A DNA stretch of 64,000 nucleotides from a virus (Duplodnaviria > Heunggongvirae > Uroviricota > Caudoviricetes). Both the position numbers and the translations under genes were made by a program. Within the stretch, counting starts at the first letter, position 1; every line of letters begins with the position of its first letter. The stretch spans positions 131,877 to 195,876 of the IMG/VR virus record IMGVR_UViG_3300028603_000019; one strand, written 5' to 3'. Shown piece after piece: positions 2,815-32,830 of this stretch. The notes below the pieces were generated by a model. That model made no database searches. It worked only from the letters and a program-made list of their open reading frames with translations, and had not been told where the DNA came from.

Positions 2815-3062
2815 GAATGGCCCGTTCTGTTTCTAGGTGGAGCCCATACCCAGTTAGATCAAGCCGCTAGGGCGAGATCCACAGGTGCTTTGTTTGTGTT
2901 TGCATCTGTTTGGTTTCTTGCGTTGACCCAGCTTGCGCGGGACTTCCTAGTTTCCTCTTTCCGCTCATGTCGATCCTGTTTATCGCCCATATGAAGGTTT
3001 GGTGGACGATCCGGGTACCGCCCCCGGGTCCATGAAAAGTCCGATTCACTTGAGGTCTTCAC
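2815..3062 (-). ncRNA. ssrA: Two-piece (circularly permuted) tmRNA, alphaproteobacterial type
   Basis: Minus strand: T-arm GACCCGGG-GGCGGTA-CCCGG then ATCGTCCACCA (3030-3000); 11-nt intervening segment (2999-2989); coding piece starting GGGCGATAAACAGGATCGAC at 2988. GGGCGAU pairs with AUCGUCC, giving G3.U70, discriminator A and encoded CCA. Tag ORF 2903-2859 is ANTNKAPVDLALAA*. Outer ends are approximate. Confidence 0.93.
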
Positions 3063-3087
3063 GAGATTAGGAAGTAATCTCTCATGT

Positions 3088-3465
3088 TTACTTAGTCACG
3101 TAATAGCAATAATCAGGCAACTCATTCACAATTTTGTCTGCTTCAATTTCCCACCATCTTTCTTGATATGGGATCCTCTTGTCTAGTTGGTTTTCCAGGT
3201 CCTGCTCCTGAAACTGCCTCACGTGAACCAACTCATGTGCCAGTGTCCAGAAAATCTCTTCCCGTGTTCTATTCTCCAGTCGGAGTTCAATCATATAGCC
3301 GACGTCTCCGTTCTTGAAGACCCGGCCCACTGGTTCCATTTCATCGTTGGCAAGAATCAACAGTTCATCCGGTTCTACCATTCCAAGATAGAACCGGATT
3401 AAAATTTCGGCAGATCGTATTATGAATTGTTCTAGGTCGGGATCCCCGAAGGTAGCTTCAATCAT
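3088..3465 (-). CDS. Zincin-like HEXXH protein
   Basis: TLAHELVHVRQ plus WWEIEA. Confidence 0.75.
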   Translation of the reverse strand: MIEATFGDPDLEQFIIRSAEILIRFYLGMVEPDELLILANDEMEPVGRVFKNGDVGYMIELRLENRTREEIFWTLAHELVHVRQFQEQDLENQLDKRIPYQERWWEIEADKIVNELPDYCYYVTK

Positions 3466-8104: not shown

Positions 8105-9463
8105 TCACTTGATTTCCTCTAGGTCACTTAGGAACTGTTCCTTCACAGTCGTCTTGTTCCAGAACGTGAGTTCCTTCTTGATTTTCTTGATCTCCTCGAT
8201 CAATTCCTTTACCAGTTCCAGAGTCAATGAGCTGATATTCAGTCGCAGGAGCCGGTCAATATCGGTATCAAGGGCATCAGTCACTTTCAGGATTTGTTCT
8301 CCCACCTGATCCTTCTTTTGATTCTTGAATACAATCAGGTCGTCCAGAACTCCCTCAATAAATTGATGCTTCACTTTCAGCCACCGAGCTTCCTCATTCA
8401 ACTTGGCCTGCATGGACTTAATTCGAGCATCCAAGATACCATTCCTGAAAAGGCAGAAGTCTCTCACAATATCCCTCTCGTCGGAATACTCCTTGAGATT
8501 TCCATCTGCCCCTATCACGGTCAGGTTTTCGGTGTGAGCCTTCACGAGTTTGAAAGCACCCCTGATCTTTTCATCATCCCAATTCGCTGAAGTCTGTTGC
8601 TTCAGCTTCACCTCAAACTTGAAGCCAGACTTATCGCATAGATCATCGTATCCAACGATATGGCCTTCATCTTCCAGTTTATCCAGAACCTTGATGTATC
8701 CCTCTCGGTCGAACCCATAAGGCACTTCGGTAATCAGGAGAACCGTCTTGGATTTTTTCTCGAAGGTGCCCTCGCAATAGTGACGGTTCTCACTTTCGTC
8801 AAACCGGACTTTACCATTGAAATGAGGATACTTGACCTTGATTCGTTTCCCGATCTTTCCGGTTTCCACAAATTCCTTGCAAGCTCGGGCAATATCGACC
8901 GGATCCCTCGGGAGAATATCGGTTGCAAATCCGGTTGCAATCCCCTTCACCCCGTTGGCAAGAACCAGAGGAATCACCGGAACATAGAAAGCCGGTGGCT
9001 CATGTTCTGGGTCGGAGTGAACAGGAGCCAGATCAAGATCCTTGACATACTTGGCAAAATTCTTGTGAAGTCGAGTATAGGTATACCGGGCAGCCGCGGC
9101 TTCCTGGACCAAGCGTGTGCCAAAAGATCCTCGTCCCTCAATCAGGCAGATATTATTGTTCCAGTCTGCTGCCATAAGTTGTCCCGTGCCTTGGGCCGAG
9201 GTTTCTCCGTGGTTGTATCCGTATCCAGAGACCACACCCGCAACGGCAGAGACTTTCTTGAACTCAGTCGAGGTATTCTTGATGGAACTATAGAGGTAGA
9301 ACCTCTGGCTTGGTTTCATTCCATCAATGCCATTTGGAATGGCCCGATTCTCTACCGTGTAAAGGGCAAAGTTTCGCCATTCATGACTGGCCAGCTTTGA
9401 AAGGGGATAAATCCCGGTTGAAGAATCAGAAGCTTGATCTTCCATAAATTCAGACAGCGACAT
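8105..9463 (-). CDS. gp52: DNA topoisomerase II medium subunit (GyrA/ParC-like)
   Basis: RAIPNGIDGMKPSQR, YNHGETS, catalytic AAARYT, GIATGFAT. Start moved to MSLSEF (AGGA RBS) because the ORF-track ATG overlaps the -10 box. Confidence 0.95.
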   Translation of the reverse strand: MSLSEFMEDQASDSSTGIYPLSKLASHEWRNFALYTVENRAIPNGIDGMKPSQRFYLYSSIKNTSTEFKKVSAVAGVVSGYGYNHGETSAQGTGQLMAADWNNNICLIEGRGSFGTRLVQEAAAARYTYTRLHKNFAKYVKDLDLAPVHSDPEHEPPAFYVPVIPLVLANGVKGIATGFATDILPRDPVDIARACKEFVETGKIGKRIKVKYPHFNGKVRFDESENRHYCEGTFEKKSKTVLLITEVPYGFDREGYIKVLDKLEDEGHIVGYDDLCDKSGFKFEVKLKQQTSANWDDEKIRGAFKLVKAHTENLTVIGADGNLKEYSDERDIVRDFCLFRNGILDARIKSMQAKLNEEARWLKVKHQFIEGVLDDLIVFKNQKKDQVGEQILKVTDALDTDIDRLLRLNISSLTLELVKELIEEIKKIKKELTFWNKTTVKEQFLSDLEEIK

Positions 9464-9491
9464 GTTCATTCCTAAGATTGGTCGTTGGTTC

Positions 9492-9520
9492 ATAATAGCT
9501 CATTTGAGGTCAAAATGCAA
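9492..9520 (-). promoter_or_regulatory. Sigma70-type promoter for gp52
   Basis: Minus strand TTGCAT-N17-TATTAT, back-to-back with repeat copy 1. Confidence 0.6.
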
Positions 9521-9535
9521 CCCCAAAATTATTTT

Positions 9536-9780
9536 CACTTTTCTTGATTTTCTGGCTTGACAGAAGCTGAAAACCCGGTATAATAAGGTTTAGGAACCGG
9601 GAAACCGTGAAGAAAGAATAATATACGTATCCTATTGCCCGATTCGGGCAACTCATATTGGTCAATTAGAATCGGACGGAGATCAAGATTCCAGGAAATC
9701 AAGAATCAGGAATATCAAGATCGAGGCGAAGCCTCATGGACGCCAGTCCATTGAATCAAGAAACCCGGAATTTCAAGATC
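9536..9780 (+). repeat. Dispersed promoter-led non-coding element, copy 1
   Basis: CACTTTTCTTGATTTTCTGGCTTGACA-N16-TATAAT; TCGGACGGAGATCAA (9672-9686); invariant 31-mer CGAGGCGAAGCCTCATGGACGCCAGTCCATT (9722-9752). Confidence 0.92.
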
Positions 9781-9807
9781 GTGTTATCATAGTGGGTGTG
9801 TGAAATT

Positions 9808-11658
9808 TCACACACCCTTTGTCACATCTTCCATCATGAATACCTTTCTCGGTTCACTGGAAGCTCCAAACATCATATCCAAGTATTGAATATCGTCCAG
9901 ATGGATCGTATCCATCACCGGATTATTGATCATGGAATCATATTCACTTTCATCGAGTGAACCGAGACCCTTGATATACCGATGATTGTAGCCCTTGGAT
10001 TCGTCCTTGAATTTGGCAGCCGCATCATACCCATAGAACCATTGAGTATCTTTGCCCTTCGATGAGATCATGATGGGTGACCGGACAATCTTGATCCTGT
10101 TTTCGGTGAACAGGCGTGGCCAAAACTTGGCGAAAAAAGCAACTAAAAGAGTCGCAATTTTTTCGCCATCACGATCTGCATCGGCCAGCACCCCAATATT
10201 CTTGTATGTGAGATCATCTACCGAATCAGGATCATTGATATTGAGACCCAGGACGCTGATCAGTTCCCCAAGTTCCTTATTCTTGAGGACGTCTGCTGCC
10301 TTCATGTTCCAGGTATTCATGACCACGCCACGGAGAGGATATGCTCCTACCATATTAGGATCACGAACCTTGAGAAGGAACCCGAGCGCAGATTGACCCT
10401 CTGTCAGGAACAACGTGGCATCTGGAGAATTGGCCGCGATGTGCTTGGCAACTTTGACTTTCTTCAATTTTTTCTGTGCGAGCCTGGCATCACGGGTTTC
10501 ATCGGCCAGTTTCTTCGCAAGCTGAGAAGCAATGATCGGGTCGATGATATCGGCCGATAGGAAAATTTTCTTGGCATAGAATACCAAGTCCTTGAGACCC
10601 GCAGCGTTGAAGTGTTCCTTCACTGCACCCTGGCTGTTGGTAAGACGCTCCTTTGTCTGGGAATCAAACTTTGGATTCTGAAAATTCTTAGCAAAGACCA
10701 CGAAGGAGAGACCGGACCTGATGGTAGACTTGGCCACCTCGATCTTGTGTTTCCTCTTGATCAGGCGGACCAGTTCTTCCACGATGGTATTGGAAATAAA
10801 GTCCACGTAGGCACCACCGAGGCGCGTGTTCACCCCGTTTACGTAGCAGTTGGGACGGAAACCGTCATTGGAACCCACAACGAAGAAGGACAGGTTCTCG
10901 GATGCCGCCATGACGACCGAACCACCTTCGTCAGTGAACATGGAAGCATAAGTCTTGAGATCCCGAACTTGGATCCGCTTCTTGTTGAAACTGAACTTCA
11001 CTTGTGGAAATGCCATCTGGAGGCCGATGAGCCGGTCTTCAAGAATCGCGAGGGTATCCTGCTCCTCCAGGGAGTCGACCTCAAAGAAGCTGAAGTCTGG
11101 AGTAAAAGTGACCTCGGTCCCGTGTCCCGACTTGGACACGACCTTGACATCAACCTTGTCGCCCCCATCGGAACAGATGACTTTCATCAACTTCCCATTC
11201 TGCCAGGTTCTTCCCTCGAATGTAGTGGACAGGAAGTTGGTAGCGGCCGATCCTAGACCATTGGCCCCGATGGAAACCCTGTCATCATCGAACGAGGTCC
11301 CCGCATTGACCTTTGTCCAGGCAGCGACAGGACGCGAAATCAGGTCACCGTTGTTAGCATCAAGGATTTCCTCGTGTGGAATTCCTCGTCCATTGTCGGT
11401 GATGGTGACTGTATTTCCGTTGATCGACACGTCGATACTATTCGCAAACTGGAATTGTGTCCTGATCGCTTCATCGATGGAGTTGTCGAGGATCTCATCT
11501 ATCATCTTGGTAAGGGCTGGGACGTAGGAGACTGTTCTCCATTTGCCCATCAAGAAACGCTCGACCGCTTCTAGTGATACACTCCCGAAATACATCCCTG
11601 TTCGCATACGAATGTGCTGTCTAGGGGTCAGGATCTGAAATTGTTCACGTGTGCTCAT
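9808..11658 (-). CDS. gp39: DNA topoisomerase II large subunit (gp39 plus fused gp60 domain)
   Basis: GHKL motifs EILDNSIDE, DNGRGIP, GANGLGS; FDSQTKERL; Toprim EGQSA and DADRDG; C-terminal RYIKGLGS. Confidence 0.95.
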   Translation of the reverse strand: MSTREQFQILTPRQHIRMRTGMYFGSVSLEAVERFLMGKWRTVSYVPALTKMIDEILDNSIDEAIRTQFQFANSIDVSINGNTVTITDNGRGIPHEEILDANNGDLISRPVAAWTKVNAGTSFDDDRVSIGANGLGSAATNFLSTTFEGRTWQNGKLMKVICSDGGDKVDVKVVSKSGHGTEVTFTPDFSFFEVDSLEEQDTLAILEDRLIGLQMAFPQVKFSFNKKRIQVRDLKTYASMFTDEGGSVVMAASENLSFFVVGSNDGFRPNCYVNGVNTRLGGAYVDFISNTIVEELVRLIKRKHKIEVAKSTIRSGLSFVVFAKNFQNPKFDSQTKERLTNSQGAVKEHFNAAGLKDLVFYAKKIFLSADIIDPIIASQLAKKLADETRDARLAQKKLKKVKVAKHIAANSPDATLFLTEGQSALGFLLKVRDPNMVGAYPLRGVVMNTWNMKAADVLKNKELGELISVLGLNINDPDSVDDLTYKNIGVLADADRDGEKIATLLVAFFAKFWPRLFTENRIKIVRSPIMISSKGKDTQWFYGYDAAAKFKDESKGYNHRYIKGLGSLDESEYDSMINNPVMDTIHLDDIQYLDMMFGASSEPRKVFMMEDVTKGV

Positions 11659-11677
11659 GGTATTCCTTTGAATTGAA

Positions 11678-11705
11678 ATGGGCGCCCGATACTTTGAGCG
11701 CCCAT
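11678..11705 (-). terminator. Hairpin, possible terminator
   Basis: ATGGGCGC/GCGCCCAT 8-bp stem between 11729..11962 and gp39; weak T tail. Confidence 0.45.
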
Positions 11706-11728
11706 CATAACTAGTCTTTTGTGATCGG

Positions 11729-11962
11729 TCAACCCCTGCCGCGCTTCACGGCTTCACGCTCGGCCTTCCGAAATTCACGTCTGCGACGAGCGATGAGTTC
11801 GCGGGTGCTACGGCAGGCTTCGTTCCCGGGCAGTCCCGCGGGTTGGATCTTCGTGATCGGAAACCCATTTGCCAGGGCTTCATCGATGAGACGGTTGTTC
11901 GCGATATTGGAGGGCTCGTTCCGCATGTTGAGTCCACCATTTCCGGTAACACGAGCAGTCAT
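11729..11962 (-). CDS. Small basic hypothetical protein (start reassigned to MTARVTGNGG)
   Basis: AAAGGAG RBS 7 nt before ATG at 11962. Confidence 0.7.
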   Translation of the reverse strand: MTARVTGNGGLNMRNEPSNIANNRLIDEALANGFPITKIQPAGLPGNEACRSTRELIARRRREFRKAEREAVKRGRG

Positions 11963-12011
11963 TTCAAATCTCCTTTGGGGTTGGGTTGGAACACTCGAGG
12001 AAAGATGCTGA

Positions 12012-12167
12012 TTAGGCAGCCTTGCTGAAATGTTCCCGGGTCTGTTTCTGAAACTCCACTTTATCTTTGCGACGAACCGCTTTTTTGGTCTTTCCGTGAG
12101 CTCCCTGTTTCTTAGCGACGATGTGTTGCACGAAGGGATCACGAGGTTTGGGCAGTGGCCTTTTCAT
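12012..12167 (-). CDS. Basic 51-aa protein (not in ORF track)
   Basis: MKRPLPKPRDPFVQHIVAKKQGAHGKTKKAVRRKDKVEFQKQTREHFSKAA*; AAGGTG RBS; overlaps the end of the upstream gene. Confidence 0.65.
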   Translation of the reverse strand: MKRPLPKPRDPFVQHIVAKKQGAHGKTKKAVRRKDKVEFQKQTREHFSKAA

Positions 12168-12327
12168 TGGCATTCACCTTTCTGATCGCTTGCATCATGG
12201 AGTCCTTGACCAGATTATACCTGACACCACGAGGCAGGCTCATGTAGTCTTTGTATTCCTGGTCGGTCATTTCCTCAATGGCCCTGCGTTCCAGGGAATT
12301 CATCATAGCAAGGAACTGGGTCATCAT
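12139..12327 (-). CDS. Small hypothetical protein (start reassigned downstream of its promoter)
   Basis: The ORF-track N-terminus runs through the promoter at 12361-12389; GGAG precedes MMTQF. Confidence 0.6.
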   Translation of the reverse strand: MMTQFLAMMNSLERRAIEEMTDQEYKDYMSLPRGVRYNLVKDSMMQAIRKVNANEKATAQTS

Positions 12328-12360
12328 AGTCTTCGGTCTCCGTCTTGGCTTCTTGTATCC

Positions 12361-12389
12361 TTTATAGACCGGGGCGCGCCCGATGTAAA
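12361..12389 (-). promoter_or_regulatory. Sigma70-type promoter
   Basis: Minus strand TTTACA-N17-TATAAA, divergent from repeat copy 2. Confidence 0.7.
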
Positions 12390-12421
12390 CCATTATTTTC
12401 AATAAATGAGACGTGAATTTT

Positions 12422-12679
12422 CTCCACTTTTCTTGATTTTCTGGCTTGACACTACTGGAAAACCGTGGTATAATAAGGATGTCCCACCGGGAAATCGGGA
12501 AGGAGATAATGTATAGATCTTGATTATTCTTTACTTGGGCCGAATCACTGTATTAAGAATCGGACGGAAATCAAGATTCCAGGAAAATCAAGACTTGTAA
12601 AGAATCAGGTAATTACAGTGACGAGGCGAAGCCTCATGGACGCCAGTCCATTATGGAAGAAACTTGGAAAAATCAAGAA
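12422..12679 (+). repeat. Dispersed promoter-led non-coding element, copy 2
   Basis: CTCCACTTTTCTTGATTTTCTGGCTTGACA-N17-TATAAT (12446-12474); TCGGACGGAAATCAA (12560-12574); 31-mer at 12622-12652. Confidence 0.92.
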
Positions 12680-13183
12680 TCATAGTCTTCCAATCCTGAA
12701 GGTATCATACTGGAAGGTAACCGATGCCTCCGGATAGATCACGTCTTGTTGGGTAATGTCCAAACTTACATCTGATAAATTAATCGGAAAACAATTCGTA
12801 AAATTCAGCTCAATATTTGGGTTCTTCTTGCTATTCATGATCTGAAGTCTGATATCTGAATACAGACCTTCTTCTGATTCGTTGATATCCCGGAACTGTT
12901 CGTGGTTTTCCGGAAACGTGATGCCGACCATCCAGTTCCATATTTCCATGTAGTTGTTCATGTTCTCATCTATGATGAATGAGACTTCAAGATTGTTGTA
13001 TTGAAGCTGATCCGGTGTTGCCCAGACATTATTGAATCTGGTTGGTTGCAGGATAGGTGAGGCGGAGATACCCGGAACTGAAATTCTCTGCGTGAAAAAC
13101 TCGACATGCGGGATCCTCTTGATCGCAATGCGGAATTCAAGAGGGGAGAAATAATTTGGAAATGGTCCGGTCGGGCTGGTCAT
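12680..13183 (-). CDS. gp3: Tail completion / sheath stabiliser (tail-tube-like)
   Basis: NYFSPLEFR..IPHVEFFTQ..PGIS, FIIDENMNNYMEIWNW, FTNCFPINLS; position next to uvsY/uvsW. Confidence 0.85.
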   Translation of the reverse strand: MTSPTGPFPNYFSPLEFRIAIKRIPHVEFFTQRISVPGISASPILQPTRFNNVWATPDQLQYNNLEVSFIIDENMNNYMEIWNWMVGITFPENHEQFRDINESEEGLYSDIRLQIMNSKKNPNIELNFTNCFPINLSDVSLDITQQDVIYPEASVTFQYDTFRIGRL

Positions 13184-13242
13184 GAACCTATTTAGCTTGG
13201 TGGGAAAACTACGCTAATTAATTCCAGGAGGAAGTTCTAAAT

Positions 13243-13710
13243 ATGAAATATATTTCAGATTCTACTGTGGGTCAATTCATCAGTGATAATCAATCAATTG
13301 TCCTTGACAGTGCAATTCGCGACACTCTGGGTTCTTGGGTAGAGGAAAATACAGAGGGTGGAATCTTAATTACCGGAACGCATTACGGTGGTATCATTAT
13401 TCAAATCAAAAACTCAGATATTATAACCCTAGGAACTCATGTGTGGACACCATCCATATTTGGATTTTCAAGTATGATAACATTTTGTCAAGATTCGGAT
13501 ACTACTATTCTGAATAAAATACTGCCAAGTCTTTTGGCATTTAATAGAAGTGTCCTTACAACTTCTTTTCGGGACGATAATGAAAAAAATATGTGGATTC
13601 AAGCCTGTGATATTATAGACAAAAAATATTTTGTATACCGTTCAAAGGGGAAAATTATTACAGAAAATGCAGATTTTGATGCCTTTTATATTACGGATGT
13701 TGAAAGATGA
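13243..13710 (+). CDS. Hypothetical protein
   Basis: AGGAGG RBS; AT-rich; CTAAATA overlaps the start. Confidence 0.65.
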   Translation: MKYISDSTVGQFISDNQSIVLDSAIRDTLGSWVEENTEGGILITGTHYGGIIIQIKNSDIITLGTHVWTPSIFGFSSMITFCQDSDTTILNKILPSLLAFNRSVLTTSFRDDNEKNMWIQACDIIDKKYFVYRSKGKIITENADFDAFYITDVER

Positions 13711-14312
13711 AAACATTACAGCAAATTTTAGCCGAATCTCCAGTAAGAATTAATTTCAGGACCAATCCTTATAGTGTCAATTTTGATGATCCTGTCATTA
13801 ATTCTGAAACCCTAGAAATGTGGTTATCTGAAAATATTCGGAGAATCAAGAAACTCGATACCAAACATAATCTTCTTGAATATACCAAGAAGGGTTCCAA
13901 ACACACGTTTGTACATAATCTAAATGATAATATGATAGACGCATTTGTTGTATGGTATCCGATAGTATCTCCTACAAAATCCTTGACAGTTTCATCTGCC
14001 TGGAGGAGAAAATCAAATCTTTTCATTTCAGATCCTATAGGATATCTCTATTTTGATTATCTGTTGCCCAAATACGGATCATTGAAATCTGACATCAGAC
14101 AAACTCCACATGGAGAAAAATTCTGGAAAGAGAAAATTCTTCCAAGAGCCGAGAAAGAAGGTCTTCATATAGGTCTTGTTAATGATAAGATACTGGAAGA
14201 ATGGAAATCTCCTAAAATACCTCTAAATGACTGGTTACGTGAAAAGGATGCCTGGGGAACGTCAAGACGACAAGAGGATATGAGTTTCATCATTTCCAAG
14301 AGGAAGTTCTGA
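13707..14312 (+). CDS. Hypothetical protein with T4 capsid-targeting-like N-terminus; possible internal head protein
   Basis: MKTLQQILAE resembles T4 CTS MKTYQEFIAE; SDxxQTxxGxxFW motif. Confidence 0.7.
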   Translation: MKTLQQILAESPVRINFRTNPYSVNFDDPVINSETLEMWLSENIRRIKKLDTKHNLLEYTKKGSKHTFVHNLNDNMIDAFVVWYPIVSPTKSLTVSSAWRRKSNLFISDPIGYLYFDYLLPKYGSLKSDIRQTPHGEKFWKEKILPRAEKEGLHIGLVNDKILEEWKSPKIPLNDWLREKDAWGTSRRQEDMSFIISKRKF

Positions 14313-14314
14313 AT

Positions 14315-14752
14315 ATGACCCTCGAGGAAATTGAAAAAGAGTGGGAACAAGATGCGAAAATTGATGAAACCAATCTTGTCAGGGCATCTTCCGATATTCC
14401 AAAGTTCCACTCCAAATATTACAAACTCCTGGTTCGCTCCGCACTCAAGGTCAAGAAACTAAAGGGTGACCTCACGGAATTGGAGCGCCTGAAATTTGAA
14501 TACTACAACGGATCACTGCCAGAAGAGGACCTGAAGGCAAAAGGCTGGAAGCCAAATGCCCTCAAGATCCTCCGCGCTGATATTCCAAGATACATCGACT
14601 CGGACAAGGACATCATTGACCTGTCCATGAAAATCAGCTATCATTCAGAGATCACCAAGTTTCTGGAAGACATTATTCGACAGGTGAACAACCGAAACTT
14701 TATCATCAAGAGCATGATTGACTTCATGAAATTTTCAAATGGCGGCTATTGA
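14315..14752 (+). CDS. uvsY: Recombination mediator UvsY
   Basis: LEEIEKEWEQDAKID....IPKFHSKY; RQVNNRNFIIKSMIDFMKFSNG. Confidence 0.92.
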   Translation: MTLEEIEKEWEQDAKIDETNLVRASSDIPKFHSKYYKLLVRSALKVKKLKGDLTELERLKFEYYNGSLPEEDLKAKGWKPNALKILRADIPRYIDSDKDIIDLSMKISYHSEITKFLEDIIRQVNNRNFIIKSMIDFMKFSNGGY

Positions 14753-14805
14753 AAAAATCAGCTAAATAGGTACAAGAAAGCACAATTACATGATGTGAAA
14801 ATCCC

Positions 14806-16296
14806 GTGATGACCGAAAAAATTGAAATCCAACACTACAATGAAGTCTATGTTCGTGTGAAGGCGGACATGAGTATCCTCCAGGAACTCACGGAATTTTT
14901 CATGTTCCGTCCGGCCGGGTTTCAATTCACTCCCAAGTTCAAGGCCAAGATCTGGGACGGTTACATCAGGCTCATTTCTCCCCATAAGCCCATTATATAC
15001 AAGGGCCTGATTGGACACCTCAAAAAATTCTGTGAAGATCGTGACTATGAGATCGTGATCGAGGATGGTCTATTTCCGACAGAGGAAGTTCCAGACGACT
15101 ATGGCTTTGACTTTGCCAAGGAAATCAATGCCACCCTTGAACCGAGAGATTACCAGAACCAGTATTTCGTGACAGCACTCCGAGAGGGCAGAACACTGTC
15201 ACTATCTCCTACATCCTCTGGTAAAAGTTTCATCATCCATCTCATAGTCCAATATTATTGGCGAGTGATGGGACTTCGGACCCTGATCATCGTCCCCACG
15301 ACAGGATTGGTAGATCAGATGGTGGGAGACTTCAAGTCTTATGGAGCCGATCCTGATATGCTCTACAAGATCCGTGGTGGCATTGACAAGGAGACTGATC
15401 TTCCTGTTGTGGTGTCCACGTGGCAATCTTTGTATAAGATGCCTTCAGAATATTTTGATCGCTTCGGGGTTGTGATCGGGGACGAGGCTCATCTCTTTTC
15501 AGCGAAGTCTCTTGTCGGCATCCTAGAAAAGATGGAACACGCCAGGTTCCGCTTCGGCTTCACGGGAACCATTTCTTCGGAATCGAAAACTCATCAGCTC
15601 GTCTTACAGGGTCTGTTTGGCCCCCTTGTCCGCTATGTAAAAACCAAGGATCTCATCGAATCCGGAACGGTAGCTGACTTCAAGGTGAAGGCCATAGTCC
15701 TGAAATATCCACAGAGCATCGTGGATGGTTTCAAGGCTGGACTTTCCAAAGTCAAGAAGGAAAAGAGGTACCACACCGAACGTGAATTTTTGGTTTCCAA
15801 CACCCGAAGGAATACCTTCATAAGAAACCTGGTCTGGTCACTGAAGGATCAGAATAATTTGATCCTCTTTGACTTGGTAGAGAAGCACGGAAAAGTCCTG
15901 AAAGAACTATTTGAAACTGAAGGTCGTATTCTTCATTTCATGACAGGAGCATCCTCAGTTGAGGAACGCGAATCGGTAAGGCACACCGTAGAAGATGATC
16001 CTCTCAAGAGACATGATATCCTGGCATCATATCAGTTATTCTCAACCGGTGTGAATATCAAGAGACTTGATAACGTAATATTCGCATCAGGATCACAATC
16101 TGAAATCAGGGTTCTTCAGAGTATTGGCAGAACCCTGAGGAAAGGGAATGGATCGGATAATGCCACATTGTATGATATCGGGGATGATTTGAGTAAGGGA
16201 TCATATACCAACTATACCATGAAGCACATGGAAAAGAGGTTGGAGATTTATGCTTCAGAAGGGTTCCCATTCAAGATATTCAAGGTTGATCTTTGA
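14806..16296 (+). CDS. uvsW: SF2 DNA helicase UvsW
   Basis: WDGYIRL, PRDYQ, SPTSSGKS, GDEAH, FSTGVNIK, QSIGRTLR. Confidence 0.96.
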   Translation: MMTEKIEIQHYNEVYVRVKADMSILQELTEFFMFRPAGFQFTPKFKAKIWDGYIRLISPHKPIIYKGLIGHLKKFCEDRDYEIVIEDGLFPTEEVPDDYGFDFAKEINATLEPRDYQNQYFVTALREGRTLSLSPTSSGKSFIIHLIVQYYWRVMGLRTLIIVPTTGLVDQMVGDFKSYGADPDMLYKIRGGIDKETDLPVVVSTWQSLYKMPSEYFDRFGVVIGDEAHLFSAKSLVGILEKMEHARFRFGFTGTISSESKTHQLVLQGLFGPLVRYVKTKDLIESGTVADFKVKAIVLKYPQSIVDGFKAGLSKVKKEKRYHTEREFLVSNTRRNTFIRNLVWSLKDQNNLILFDLVEKHGKVLKELFETEGRILHFMTGASSVEERESVRHTVEDDPLKRHDILASYQLFSTGVNIKRLDNVIFASGSQSEIRVLQSIGRTLRKGNGSDNATLYDIGDDLSKGSYTNYTMKHMEKRLEIYASEGFPFKIFKVDL

Positions 16297-16520
16297 TTTC
16301 CGTCCGACCCTGAATCAATGGACTGGCGTCCATGAGGCTTCGCCTCGTCCCTGTAATTACATGATTCTTGATTTTCCTAGATTCATATAGACAGTGATTC
16401 GGCCCCAAAAAGAATAATCAAGACCTAATACATTATCTCCTTCCCGATTTCCCGGTGGGACATCCTTATTTTACCACGGTTTTCCAGTAGTGTCAAGCCA
16501 GAAAATCAAGAAAAGTGGAG
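16293..16520 (-). repeat. Dispersed promoter-led non-coding element, copy 3 (inverted)
   Basis: Minus strand TTGACA-N17-TAAAAT (16496-16468); 31-mer at 16317-16347; TCGGACGGAAATCAA module at 16293-16307; first ~90 nt almost identical to copy 2. Confidence 0.92.
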
Positions 16521-16585
16521 ATTATTTTGGGCCAAATCATGGTCCTAATAACCATCACTTTCTGAAATCAAAACCCAAACAGTGG

Positions 16586-16646: not shown

Positions 16647-17204
16647 ATGAGCATAGAGAAAAAACCTAAGCGGAATTACGTGAATAATGCCGATTTTTAT
16701 GAAGCATTGAAGAAACACAGGACCGCCTGTCAAGCGGCCAGAGATTCCGATAAGCCCCTACCACAAGTCCCGAATTATCTCGGAGAGTGTCTCCTTCAGA
16801 TCGCGACTAATTTGGCCCGGCGACCTAACTTTTCTGGATATGCGTATCGGGAAGACATGATTATGGACGGCGTGGAAAACGCCCTTCGGTACATAGAATC
16901 TTTTGATCCCAACAGGACGAAAAACCCATTTGGATATTTCACGAAAGTGATATGGTTCAGGTTCATCCGAAAAATCAAGGATGAGAAGAAACAACTCTAT
17001 GTCAGGTTCAAGAACTCACAGAGTCTCCTATCCGGTCAAGGAACGTTTGAAGCCGGACAAGAGGAGGTCCAGATGAACCTCTCCAATTCGGTAGACTACA
17101 TGAATGCGTTCATCGAGGAATTTGAGGAAAAGAACTTCGGGAAGAAGAACATCAAAGCCTCGGACCTGGATAGAGAAGCGGAAGAAGCCAAAAAGAATGA
17201 GTGA
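16647..17204 (+). CDS. gp55: Sigma factor for late transcription
   Basis: NYVNNADF, NFSGYAYREDMIMDG, FDPNRTKNPFGYFT..W..FIRKIKDEKKQ. Confidence 0.95.
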   Translation: MSIEKKPKRNYVNNADFYEALKKHRTACQAARDSDKPLPQVPNYLGECLLQIATNLARRPNFSGYAYREDMIMDGVENALRYIESFDPNRTKNPFGYFTKVIWFRFIRKIKDEKKQLYVRFKNSQSLLSGQGTFEAGQEEVQMNLSNSVDYMNAFIEEFEEKNFGKKNIKASDLDREAEEAKKNE

Positions 17205-18237
17205 TCGTGTAGCCATTCTCTGTGATACTCACTTTGGAGTGAAGGGTGATTCCAAAGTGTTCCTGGATCATCAGGAGAGGTTCTTTCGGGATATATTTTT
17301 TCCATACCTTGAAGCAAATGAAATCACGACCATCCTACATTTGGGAGATGTATTTGATCGACGGAAGAATATCAATTTCTACACGTTTTCCAGGGTCAAG
17401 GAATTTTTCTTGGAGAAACTGGTTCCATACGATTTTCATGCCGTCGTTGGAAATCACGACACATTCTTCACAAACACGAACGAAGTCAATTCTCCAGCCC
17501 TTCTCCTAGGAAATTTCATCGACCCTTCTCAAGTGTATGTCAATGAACCCAAGGAATTGAAATTCGGTAAAACCAAGGTAATCATGTGCCCTTGGTTGAC
17601 TCGTGAAAATACTGAACAGTGCCTGTCCACAGTCGCGAAATCCAAGGCTCATATTCTCATGGGTCATTTTGAGATGAAGGGATTTGAGTTTCTGAAAGGA
17701 ATCAAATCTGAACATGGACTGGATGCAAAATTGTTCAGGAACTTTGAGGGTGTGTATTCCGGACACTTTCATCACCAATCCAAACAAGCAAATATCCATT
17801 ATCTGGGCACACCATATCAAATGACGTGGGCCGACTTCGGAGAAACGAAGGGATTTCATGTTCTGAATACCAATACCAGAGACTTGGAATTCATTCCCAA
17901 TCCACACGATATATTTCATAAGATCATCTATGATGGTGACGATACCGAGATACCTGATCTGGATAACTCCTACGTGAGACTGGTCGTGAAAGATCGAGGA
18001 GATTTATCAAACTTTGAGCAATATATTTCCAAGCTCAATGATTCGGGAGCCGTCGATATCAAAGTCATTGAAGATCCGAGCCTGATCATCGACTCGGTTG
18101 GAGATTTGGAACTCGACGAAACAATCACCACTCAAGAATTTTTGCACCAATACATAGATCAGGTCGAGACCAAGGTAGACAAGACCAAAATCAAGATAGT
18201 CATAGACGAGTTATACAAGAAAGCCCTGGCCGCCTAA
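17197..18237 (+). CDS. gp47: Recombination endonuclease, Mre11/SbcD-like
   Basis: DTHFG, GDVFD, GNHD, GHFE, SGHFH; start reassigned to MSDRV. Confidence 0.95.
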   Translation: MSDRVAILCDTHFGVKGDSKVFLDHQERFFRDIFFPYLEANEITTILHLGDVFDRRKNINFYTFSRVKEFFLEKLVPYDFHAVVGNHDTFFTNTNEVNSPALLLGNFIDPSQVYVNEPKELKFGKTKVIMCPWLTRENTEQCLSTVAKSKAHILMGHFEMKGFEFLKGIKSEHGLDAKLFRNFEGVYSGHFHHQSKQANIHYLGTPYQMTWADFGETKGFHVLNTNTRDLEFIPNPHDIFHKIIYDGDDTEIPDLDNSYVRLVVKDRGDLSNFEQYISKLNDSGAVDIKVIEDPSLIIDSVGDLELDETITTQEFLHQYIDQVETKVDKTKIKIVIDELYKKALAA

Positions 18238-32368: not shown

Positions 32369-32830
32369 GTGAGCTTTGGCATGAACATCAGCGAGGATAT
32401 TTTTCAAGGAATTGGAGTTGAAATCAGACTCAACTCCCCCGACGACTTCCTGAAAATTCGAGAGACGCTGACCAGAATCGGGATATCTTCAAAGTCCGGA
32501 GATACACTGTATCAGTCTTGTCATATCCTGCACAAGCGTGATCGTGACAGTGCCGGAAAGAGTAGATACGTGATAGCCCATTTCAAGGAACTCTTTATCC
32601 TCGACGGCAAAGATTCCACTCTAGGAGAAGAGGATATCTCTCGAAGGAACACGGTCACGAATCTTCTGGAAGAATGGGAACTCCTGACCATCCTGGACTA
32701 TGAAAAATCTGGTTCTCCAGTTGCTCCTCTTCATAAACTCAAGATCATCCCATTTAGTGAAAAATCAAAATGGGTTCTAAGACAGAAATACACAATCGGA
32801 CATCATGTAAAGGACGTGAAAACAAGATGA
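32369..32830 (+). CDS. regA: Translational repressor RegA
   Basis: DDFLKIRETLTRIGI, LYQSCHILHK, HFKELF. Confidence 0.95.
   Translation: MSFGMNISEDIFQGIGVEIRLNSPDDFLKIRETLTRIGISSKSGDTLYQSCHILHKRDRDSAGKSRYVIAHFKELFILDGKDSTLGEEDISRRNTVTNLLEEWELLTILDYEKSGSPVAPLHKLKIIPFSEKSKWVLRQKYTIGHHVKDVKTR

Follow-up and report, generated by a model that had tools for sequence, protein, structure and literature searches.

Results

A repeated promoter-led cassette in a T4-like phage

The window analysed here is a stretch of 64,000 nucleotides (nt; bases 131877–195876) of the 210,571-bp IMG/VR virus record IMGVR_UViG_3300028603_000019, the genome of a T4-like phage. It holds three copies (c1, c2 and c3) of a 250–300 bp cassette that opens with a sigma70-type promoter and continues into a non-coding body. 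A whole-genome search revealed a fourth copy (c4) at C1:3790–4096 (-), outside the window and adjoining gp13. The original prediction, which had listed three dispersed copies, is thus right for the window and missed one copy in the genome. Coordinates of c1, c2 and c3 are window positions and those of c4 are genome (C1) positions throughout. The phage is a metagenomic record, and promoters were scored against the sigma70 consensus TTGACA/TATAAT. The copies in the window and their parts are as follows.

9520–9822 (approximate), plus strand: copy c1, whole cassette, between gp52 and gp39, including a terminator-like hairpin
9557–9584, plus strand: c1 promoter, TTGACA-N16-TATAAT, 12/12 consensus
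9678–9721, plus strand: c1 tandem array with unit GGAAATCAAGATTCA (Tandem Repeats Finder: period 16, 2.8 copies)
9723–9751, plus strand: c1 twin hairpin, from folding
9794–9821, plus strand: c1 terminator-like hairpin, 10 bp, -18 kcal/mol, z -4.6, followed by TTTG
12409–12687 (approximate), plus strand: copy c2, between orf87 and the gp19-like gene
12446–12474, plus strand: c2 promoter, TTGACA-N17-TATAAT with TG-extended -10, 12/12 consensus
12623–12651, plus strand: c2 twin hairpin, from folding
16285–16533 (approximate), minus strand: copy c3, between uvsW and gp55
16318–16346, minus strand: c3 twin hairpin, from folding
16468–16496, minus strand: c3 promoter, TTGACA-N17-TAAAAT with TG-extended -10, 11/12 consensus

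The copies in the window are tied together by a 27-mer, CACTTTTCTTGATTTTCTGGCTTGACA, which occurs exactly at 9536 (+), 12425 (+) and 16517 (-) and gave 0 matches in 100 shuffles. The sites reported earlier are thereby confirmed, and the boundaries proved slightly wider than first drawn. In a self-comparison of the genome, the family is the largest dispersed non-coding repeat, IS605 ends excepted. The promoter and the conserved block at the 5´ end are 87–89% identical among c2, c3 and c4, with c1 67–71% identical to these, and the picture of conserved blocks separated by variable segments is therefore sound. According to the list of open reading frames (ORFs) and the alignments, all ORFs overlapping the copies are short and none is conserved between copies. 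The sole peptide that they share, MDASPL, is encoded within the twin hairpin, and the view of the element as non-coding holds.

The promoters stand out from the early promoters of the phage

The c4 promoter also matches the sigma70 consensus at 12/12 positions and has a 17-bp spacer and a TGn-extended -10. Every 12/12 promoter in the genome falls inside a cassette copy and there are few other 11/12 sites (e.g., genome 73103), in agreement with the earlier observation that the copies share an opening and carry the closest-to-consensus promoters to be found. Around 15 other early-type promoters, located at C1:19–96 kb (minus strand) and at window 9470–9530 (-), consist of GGTTGAC(A/C), a spacer and GAG(C/T)TAnnnT followed by a ribosome-binding site and a start codon. 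Because these native promoters differ in form, those of the cassettes stand out. We take the GAG(C/T)TAnnnT element to resemble an alphaproteobacterial -10. Of 15 native early promoters, 5 have the motif YCAAGA, which resembles the box repeated in the body of the cassettes, among the first 22 nt transcribed, compared to a background of 2.6% (P = 3e-5 in a post hoc test).

The first ~35 transcribed nt of the cassettes are GC-rich, and an AT-rich patch of ~30 nt follows at about +45 to +75. No hairpin is found upstream of the -35 in the cassettes; the position is taken by a T-rich stretch. The 11/12 promoter at genome C1:73103 (-), outside the window, is a TTGACA-N17-TAAAAT element with a transcript start at ...CTTCAAGAAAG. 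Its first 50 nt are without an evident start codon, and it may head another non-coding unit of the early phase.

The body is built from short repeats and an invariant twin hairpin

The cassette begins with a T-rich flank, in which a TCTTGATT box is reverse-complementary to the repeated box of the body. The promoter is followed by the conserved 5´ block of ~55 nt and then by a variable middle built of a 16–17-nt unit, GGAAA(A)TCAAGA(T/A)TC, present once in c3, 2–3 times in c2, 3–4 times in c1 and 5–6 times in c4. Outside the c1 array the boxes are irregularly spaced, with 1–6 per copy. Over the 1189 nt of cassette sequence, ATCAAGA is seen 11 times in forward and 7 times in reverse orientation, where 0.44 is expected for each. 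The order of the modules varies. The module TCGGACGGA(A/G)ATCAA precedes the twin hairpin in two copies (c1, c2) and follows it in the other two (c3, c4), and CAAGATCGTGTTATCA follows it in c1 and precedes it in c4. The permuted modules look like differently phased slices of a longer tandem array. In total the body is ~170–250 nt long. Its transcribed strand is 57–60% purine compared to 53% in the sense strands of genes, and GGA is enriched around twofold (p 0.005–0.03 per copy) but not consistently located in loops.

The most constant part of the body is the twin hairpin, in which GAGGC-GAA-GCCTC abuts ATGGAC-GCCA-GTCCAT. It is identical in c1–c3, has one changed loop base in c4, and is invariant while its flanks diverge. 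It folds with a z of about -4 as RNA or DNA and on either strand (-8.8 kcal/mol and z -4.1 as DNA). A strong terminal hairpin is found in c1 only, where it overlaps the gp39 stop codon and fails the U-tract rule of the terminator scanner; c2, c3 and c4 are without an evident terminator. The cassette hairpins sit 130–250 nt downstream. Folds of whole transcripts are modest (z -3.5 for c1 and -2.1 for c2), and RNAalifold on the four related copies yields no more than the invariant hairpins, one short 5´ hairpin and, between the 5´ and 3´ parts, a helix of 4 bp with some compensatory change. Covariation rests on these four related copies because the body has no homologue outside the genome, and any RNA structure beyond the twin hairpin is tentative.

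The assignment to no named family stands, as there was no Rfam or database match. At the Rfam gathering threshold, the only hit to pass is a tmRNA elsewhere in the window, and a search with c1 and c2 at E <= 10 gave nothing meaningful and no CsrB, RsmY or RsmZ model. The tmRNA, at 2816–3113 (-), is of the permuted (two-piece, alpha-type) kind and is also called by ARAGORN, with the tag ANTNKAPVDLALAA. The ends of the cassettes have only the short TCTTGATT/AATCAAGA box in common, no target-site duplications flank the copies, and the cassettes show no similarity to the IS605 ends of the genome.

Family searches across the whole genome gave no match to MotA, RegB, CsrA or ParB. Readings of the cassette promoter as a middle-mode (MotA) promoter, of the element as a RegB target and of a 16-bp palindrome as a ParB/parS site were rejected for this reason. 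The translational repressor RegA is encoded at C1:164293–164676 (window ~32417–32800, +; 119 bits). Two ORFs, orf137 and orf87, were considered as candidates for a binding protein and dropped, as neither gave a Pfam, PHROG or Atlas lead.

The copies have a common layout relative to neighbouring genes

The genes that surround the cassettes in the window are the following.

8105–9493, minus strand: gp52, topoisomerase subunit, T4 core gene
9808–11658, minus strand: gp39, topoisomerase large subunit, T4 core gene
12139–12402, minus strand: orf87, an ORFan
12680–13183, minus strand: gp19-like tail tube protein, T4 core gene
14806–16296, plus strand: UvsW helicase (uvsW), T4 core gene
16647–17204, plus strand: gp55, late sigma factor, T4 core gene
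17104–18237, plus strand: gp47, T4 core gene

In all four copies, the promoter end adjoins the start of a gene on the opposite strand, namely gp52, orf87, gp55 and gp13, respectively, for c1 to c4. The 40-nt gap between c1 and gp52 is filled by a native-type promoter, and gp13, the head-tail adaptor gene, has a CTAAATA late-type motif. At their other end c1, c2 and c3 are convergent with gp39, gp19 and uvsW and point into the 3´ ends of these genes, with c2 and c3 terminating flush with the stop codons of gp19 and uvsW. Only c4 is co-oriented with downstream ORFs; on its own strand it is followed by a native early promoter and small ORFs, one of which has a signal-peptide-like start. The copies flank two of three points at which gene orientation diverges. 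Copy c4 sits exactly at such a point and c1, c2 and c3 are 0.6–3.5 kb from the main one at genome 145.1 kb. Minima of the nucleotide skew track the gene strand and are not independent evidence.

The gp19-like gene (window 12680–13243) is inverted compared to all relatives examined, in which gp19 diverges from gp39, and the junction holds c2. An inversion between c2 and c3 was considered as the cause of this flip and rejected, as the gene orders do not fit. Beyond gp19, the window has an AT-rich island of ORFans at 13.2–14.3 kb (31–37% GC). Two near-consensus sigma70-type promoters (10/12) are found just upstream of uvsW at window 14616–14706 (+). Early transcription may therefore extend into uvsW here, and the convergent c3 promoter would then have something to counter.

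The promoter is conserved by position in relatives

Cultured phages are only distantly related to this one (gp39 is 48% identical to that of KVP40-like vibriophages and UvsW 45% identical to that of cyanomyoviruses), and uncultured IMG/VR relatives are up to ~65% identical. A homologue of the body was found neither by blastn in 50,697 phage records nor by exact-core scans of IMG/VR, nhmmer over 80 gp39 loci of relatives, or blastn of the element in five large relatives. A 19-mer scan of metagenome contigs gave 16 matches, all by chance and in unrelated contexts, and a scan of GTDB genomes with the second hairpin gave 2 chance matches only.

The promoter, in contrast, has counterparts. We compared distinct uvsW-gp55 gaps from IMG/VR relatives that keep the uvsW-gp55 order and have UvsW ~60% identical to that of the present phage. 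A perfect antisense TTGACA-N16-18-TATAAT is found in this gap in 37 of 38 distinct relatives. The gap is mostly 133–194 bp, compared to 350 bp here, and the antisense -10 ends mostly 23–38 nt, and in a few relatives up to 137 nt, from the uvsW stop codon. Frequently a sense promoter for gp55 stands back-to-back with the antisense one, and divergent promoters are found upstream of g55 in cyanophage S-RSM4, too. In 16 of 22 distinct sequences, the antisense start site is covered by a short inverted repeat whose TTAT(C) centre is conserved and whose arms vary; such a repeat is seen at 50 of 142 other promoters of the same phages. In the literature searched, we found no description of a conserved uvsW/gp55 antisense promoter.

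The gp13 site was compared in four large relatives with five gp13 loci (a gp13-based scan of IMG/VR gave no loci). One relative, G007, has a perfect antisense promoter upstream of gp13, and none was found in G002 or G006. The 182-kb relative G001 has a three-copy cassette of its own, 66–95 bp in length and made up of a promoter, a palindrome and GGGAGCTATGGTAT. Two copies are in tandem upstream of gp13 (174949–175108) and one is at uvsW/gp55 (70775–70840), with 85% identity. In G001 as in the present phage, copies within the genome are closer to each other than to their positional counterparts elsewhere.

Accordingly, c3 occupies the place of a clade-wide antisense promoter, and the sites of c3 and c4 are both sites of antisense early promoters in relatives. 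The cassette is a real and not a chance repeat, given its four copies and the bare antisense promoter of relatives at two of the same positions. The promoter module is conserved by position and the body is specific to the lineage. Conservation in related phages, one of the points raised in the original prediction, is thus found for the position of the promoter and not for the body. That both position and orientation have been conserved speaks for real promoters under selection, with an action at the boundaries of transcription units.

Discussion

Both timed gene expression in phages and R-loop-primed replication have T4-like phages as their model. On the origins or non-coding transcripts of T4-like phages other than T4, we know of almost nothing. 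In this setting we report an unannotated and statistically solid four-copy unit with a promoter module at positions conserved across a large uncultured clade. The interpretation put forward in the original prediction, with its three models of replication origins, early small RNAs and a mobile unit, is supported in part, and it did not take in the conserved antisense promoter of relatives, which shifts weight towards a role at the level of transcription.

Building on the observed anatomy of the sequence, the number of copies, the lack of coding and the positional conservation of the promoter, we tentatively favour, at somewhat short of an even chance, a lineage-specific family of early counter-transcription and non-coding RNA cassettes, with the four copies kept alike within the genome. 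A maximal promoter (consensus -35, 17-bp spacer and TG-extended -10) would be fired by unmodified host sigma70 RNA polymerase and be active only while such polymerase is available, i.e. early in infection. The promoter adjoins the start region of the next gene and faces away from it, and three of the four copies aim it at the 3´ end of the co-directional gene before. Within the T4-like clade the promoter module would be old, found at uvsW/gp55 and, in some members, ahead of gp13. To this, the present phage would have added a non-coding, purine-rich body of ~170–250 nt with GGAAA(A)UCAAGA repeats, a GGACGGA module and the invariant twin hairpin. Early in infection, c1 would yield an abundant and discrete RNA of ~230 nt with a hairpin at its end, c2 and c3 would yield longer RNAs antisense to gp19 and uvsW, and c4 would yield a leader preceding an early operon. 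The proposed function is early-phase antisense control or insulation of neighbours, such that UvsW and late genes would be held down during sigma70 transcription, and the repeat body could be an add-on at the RNA level for transcript stability or the binding of a factor. T4 makes UvsW late, and the appearance of this protein dissolves the R-loops of origins (PMC3016281). An early counter-transcript would therefore help to keep UvsW late, and by analogy the same logic fits gp19, a late structural gene. That the cassettes are transcribed, where their RNAs end and that they have a regulatory effect is what we infer from the sequence.

Several observations weigh against this reading. The copies differ downstream, with c1 stopping at a hairpin and c4 co-oriented with early genes, and a single role in cis therefore does not fit all four. 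Copy c1 is not explained, as its hairpin would stop the transcript before gp39. The whole fold of c3 is no better than that of shuffled sequences (z -1.2), compensatory change is confined to one 4-bp long-range helix among four related copies, and a test of spacer similarity to the antisense promoters of relatives was not significant (p = 0.31). Finally, a bare promoter suffices in relatives, so that counter-transcription does not account for the 200-nt body. For this reason, the body probably has its own role, as RNA or as DNA.

Two rival readings may be envisaged, each of which we find unlikely and neither better placed than the other. In the first, the cassettes are transcription-primed replication origins, either because the early transcript forms a persistent R-loop or because the 16–17-bp repeats are iterons as in T4 oriE. 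The displaced strand would fold into the twin hairpin, which is stable as DNA too, and offer a loading site for helicase or primase. The origin model of the original prediction is favoured by the combination of early promoter, direct repeats and proximity to divergence points. In T4, oriE combines an early promoter with evenly spaced direct repeats, and oriE, oriF and oriG are all found near points of transcription divergence (PMC3016281); the cassettes have a promoter and short repeats, with c4 at a divergence point and c1–c3 within 0.6–3.5 kb. A purine-rich transcript favours RNA:DNA hybrids, and because MotA is absent any R-loop origin of this phage would have to use early promoters. Against this model count a transcript start that is GC-rich over ~35 nt where an A+T-rich unwinding element might be expected, with the AT-rich patch coming at about +45 to +75, a repeat number that varies from 1 to 6, spacing that is irregular outside c1, and the bare promoter that is all that relatives keep at the same sites. 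The skew minima follow the gene strand and lend no independent support, and no initiator candidate was found, the neighbouring ORFans being without a family or Atlas match.

In the second, the early transcript is a decoy or sponge that acts in trans, with the GGAAA(A)UCAAGA boxes and the twin hairpin titrating a host or phage RNA-binding factor and the positions of the copies being incidental. One possibility is a factor that recognizes the YCAAGA box of the phage's own early mRNAs, another a defence nuclease. The small-RNA model of the original prediction would fit the strong promoter, the repeat modules and the discrete hairpin at the end of c1, and multiple copies, maximal promoters, a variable number of short repeats and shuffled modules are typical of protein-sponge RNAs. 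The enrichment of YCAAGA at native early transcript starts (5/15, post hoc) suggests mimicry of early leaders, and among the proteins of the phage is RegA, which represses early mRNAs and binds RNA. The twofold enrichment of GGA is in favour of this model as well. Against it, Rfam gave no match to a Csr/Rsm or any other model up to E <= 10, and CsrA is not encoded by the phage. The repeat unit is far shorter than the repeats of type III antitoxins. Three of the copies have no evident terminator, and the strict gene-relative layout of all four would be unexpected for a gene that acts purely in trans. We see a comparably small chance that the cassettes are, in a more specific form of these models, a sequence-defined, multi-copy family of replication origins or R-loop elements driven by early promoters in a T4-like phage devoid of MotA, or a YCAAGA-mimicking decoy that titrates a factor acting on early leaders. 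If so, the ancestral core of the system would be the antisense promoter found clade-wide where uvsW ends.

Less probable still is a selfish or neutral recombination cassette, i.e. a mobile promoter module akin to the promoter-early stem-loop (PeSL) cassettes of T4-type phages, spread and homogenized by phage recombination and serving no purpose other than occasional gene shuffling. PeSLs are repeated early-promoter motifs that mediate shuffling (PMC4122927, PMC2839356). The proposal of a mobile unit gains support from the shuffled modules, permuted as if cut from a longer tandem array, by copies more alike within a genome than between positional counterparts, here and in G001, and by the location of c2 at a rearrangement junction with gp19 inverted compared to relatives. 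It is not borne out at the ends of the element, where target-site duplications and similarity to IS605 ends are lacking. The preservation of position and orientation in 37 of 38 relatives argues for selection. Also against a selfish cassette, the twin hairpin is invariant between diverged flanks, and direct and inverted repeats of 250 bp within an essential cluster should be costly to a phage driven by recombination. A miniature inverted-repeat transposable element or an element derived from IS200/IS605 was rejected, as the ends of the copies have no more than the short box in common, no duplications flank the copies and similarity to the IS605 ends of the genome is lacking.

Returning to early counter-transcription, what the conserved module points to, both where uvsW ends next to gp55 and ahead of gp13, is an early antisense or boundary element of wide occurrence. 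To our knowledge, no such element has been described before. Transcript mapping in cultured relatives, cyanomyoviruses among them, can be aimed directly at the conserved module.

Comparison with known systems

Sponge RNAs of the CsrB/RsmZ type and the pseudo-ToxI of phage phiTE resemble the cassettes in having a strong promoter, no coding sequence, a variable number of short boxes and paralogous copies. The box of the cassettes is unlike the CsrA consensus context, and the unit of 16–17 nt differs from the 34–45 nt of type III antitoxins. Another parallel is with the early "anti-late" antisense RNAs of T4, in which host polymerase generates early transcripts opposite late genes; in the present phage these genes would be gp19 and uvsW, the latter being a late gene in T4 (PMC3016281). 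Here, however, the antisense promoter forms a discrete module, conserved and repeated, that is flush with a stop codon and has a dedicated non-coding body.

The origins of T4 comprise oriE, with an early promoter and 12-nt iterons, and oriF and oriG, with a promoter, an unwinding element and an R-loop (PMC3016281). The cassettes are similar in that a promoter is followed by short direct repeats, in their location near divergence points, in the presence of several dispersed copies, and in a neighbourhood of replication genes that includes uvsW. They seem to differ in what directly follows the promoter, which is GC-rich over ~35 nt before an AT-rich patch and not an A+T-rich unwinding element, and in the irregularity of their repeats, 1–6 in number, outside the period-16 array of c1. 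Moreover, the T4 origins share no common sequence, whereas the cassette copies are one family.

The closest likeness is to the PeSL cassettes of T4-type phages (Arbiol 2010, PMC2839356; Comeau 2014, PMC4122927). Both have a conserved sigma70-type early promoter at several intergenic sites, in the present case four copies with an identical -35 flank, and in both the copies are alike within a genome and linked to rearrangement junctions. However, PeSLs are small composites of terminator and promoter, whereas the elements described here are 250–300 bp with ~200 nt of non-coding body downstream of the promoter. PeSLs are found in hyperplastic regions of variable genes, at the junctions of indels and replacements, and c1–c3 are among core replication and structural genes and point against them. 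Of the features that characterize a PeSL, the cassettes thus have the repeated promoter and lack the upstream terminator stem-loop and the hyperplastic location. The cassette belongs to no described family and is best filed next to PeSLs, as its nearest kind among the repeated early-promoter cassettes of T4-type phages.

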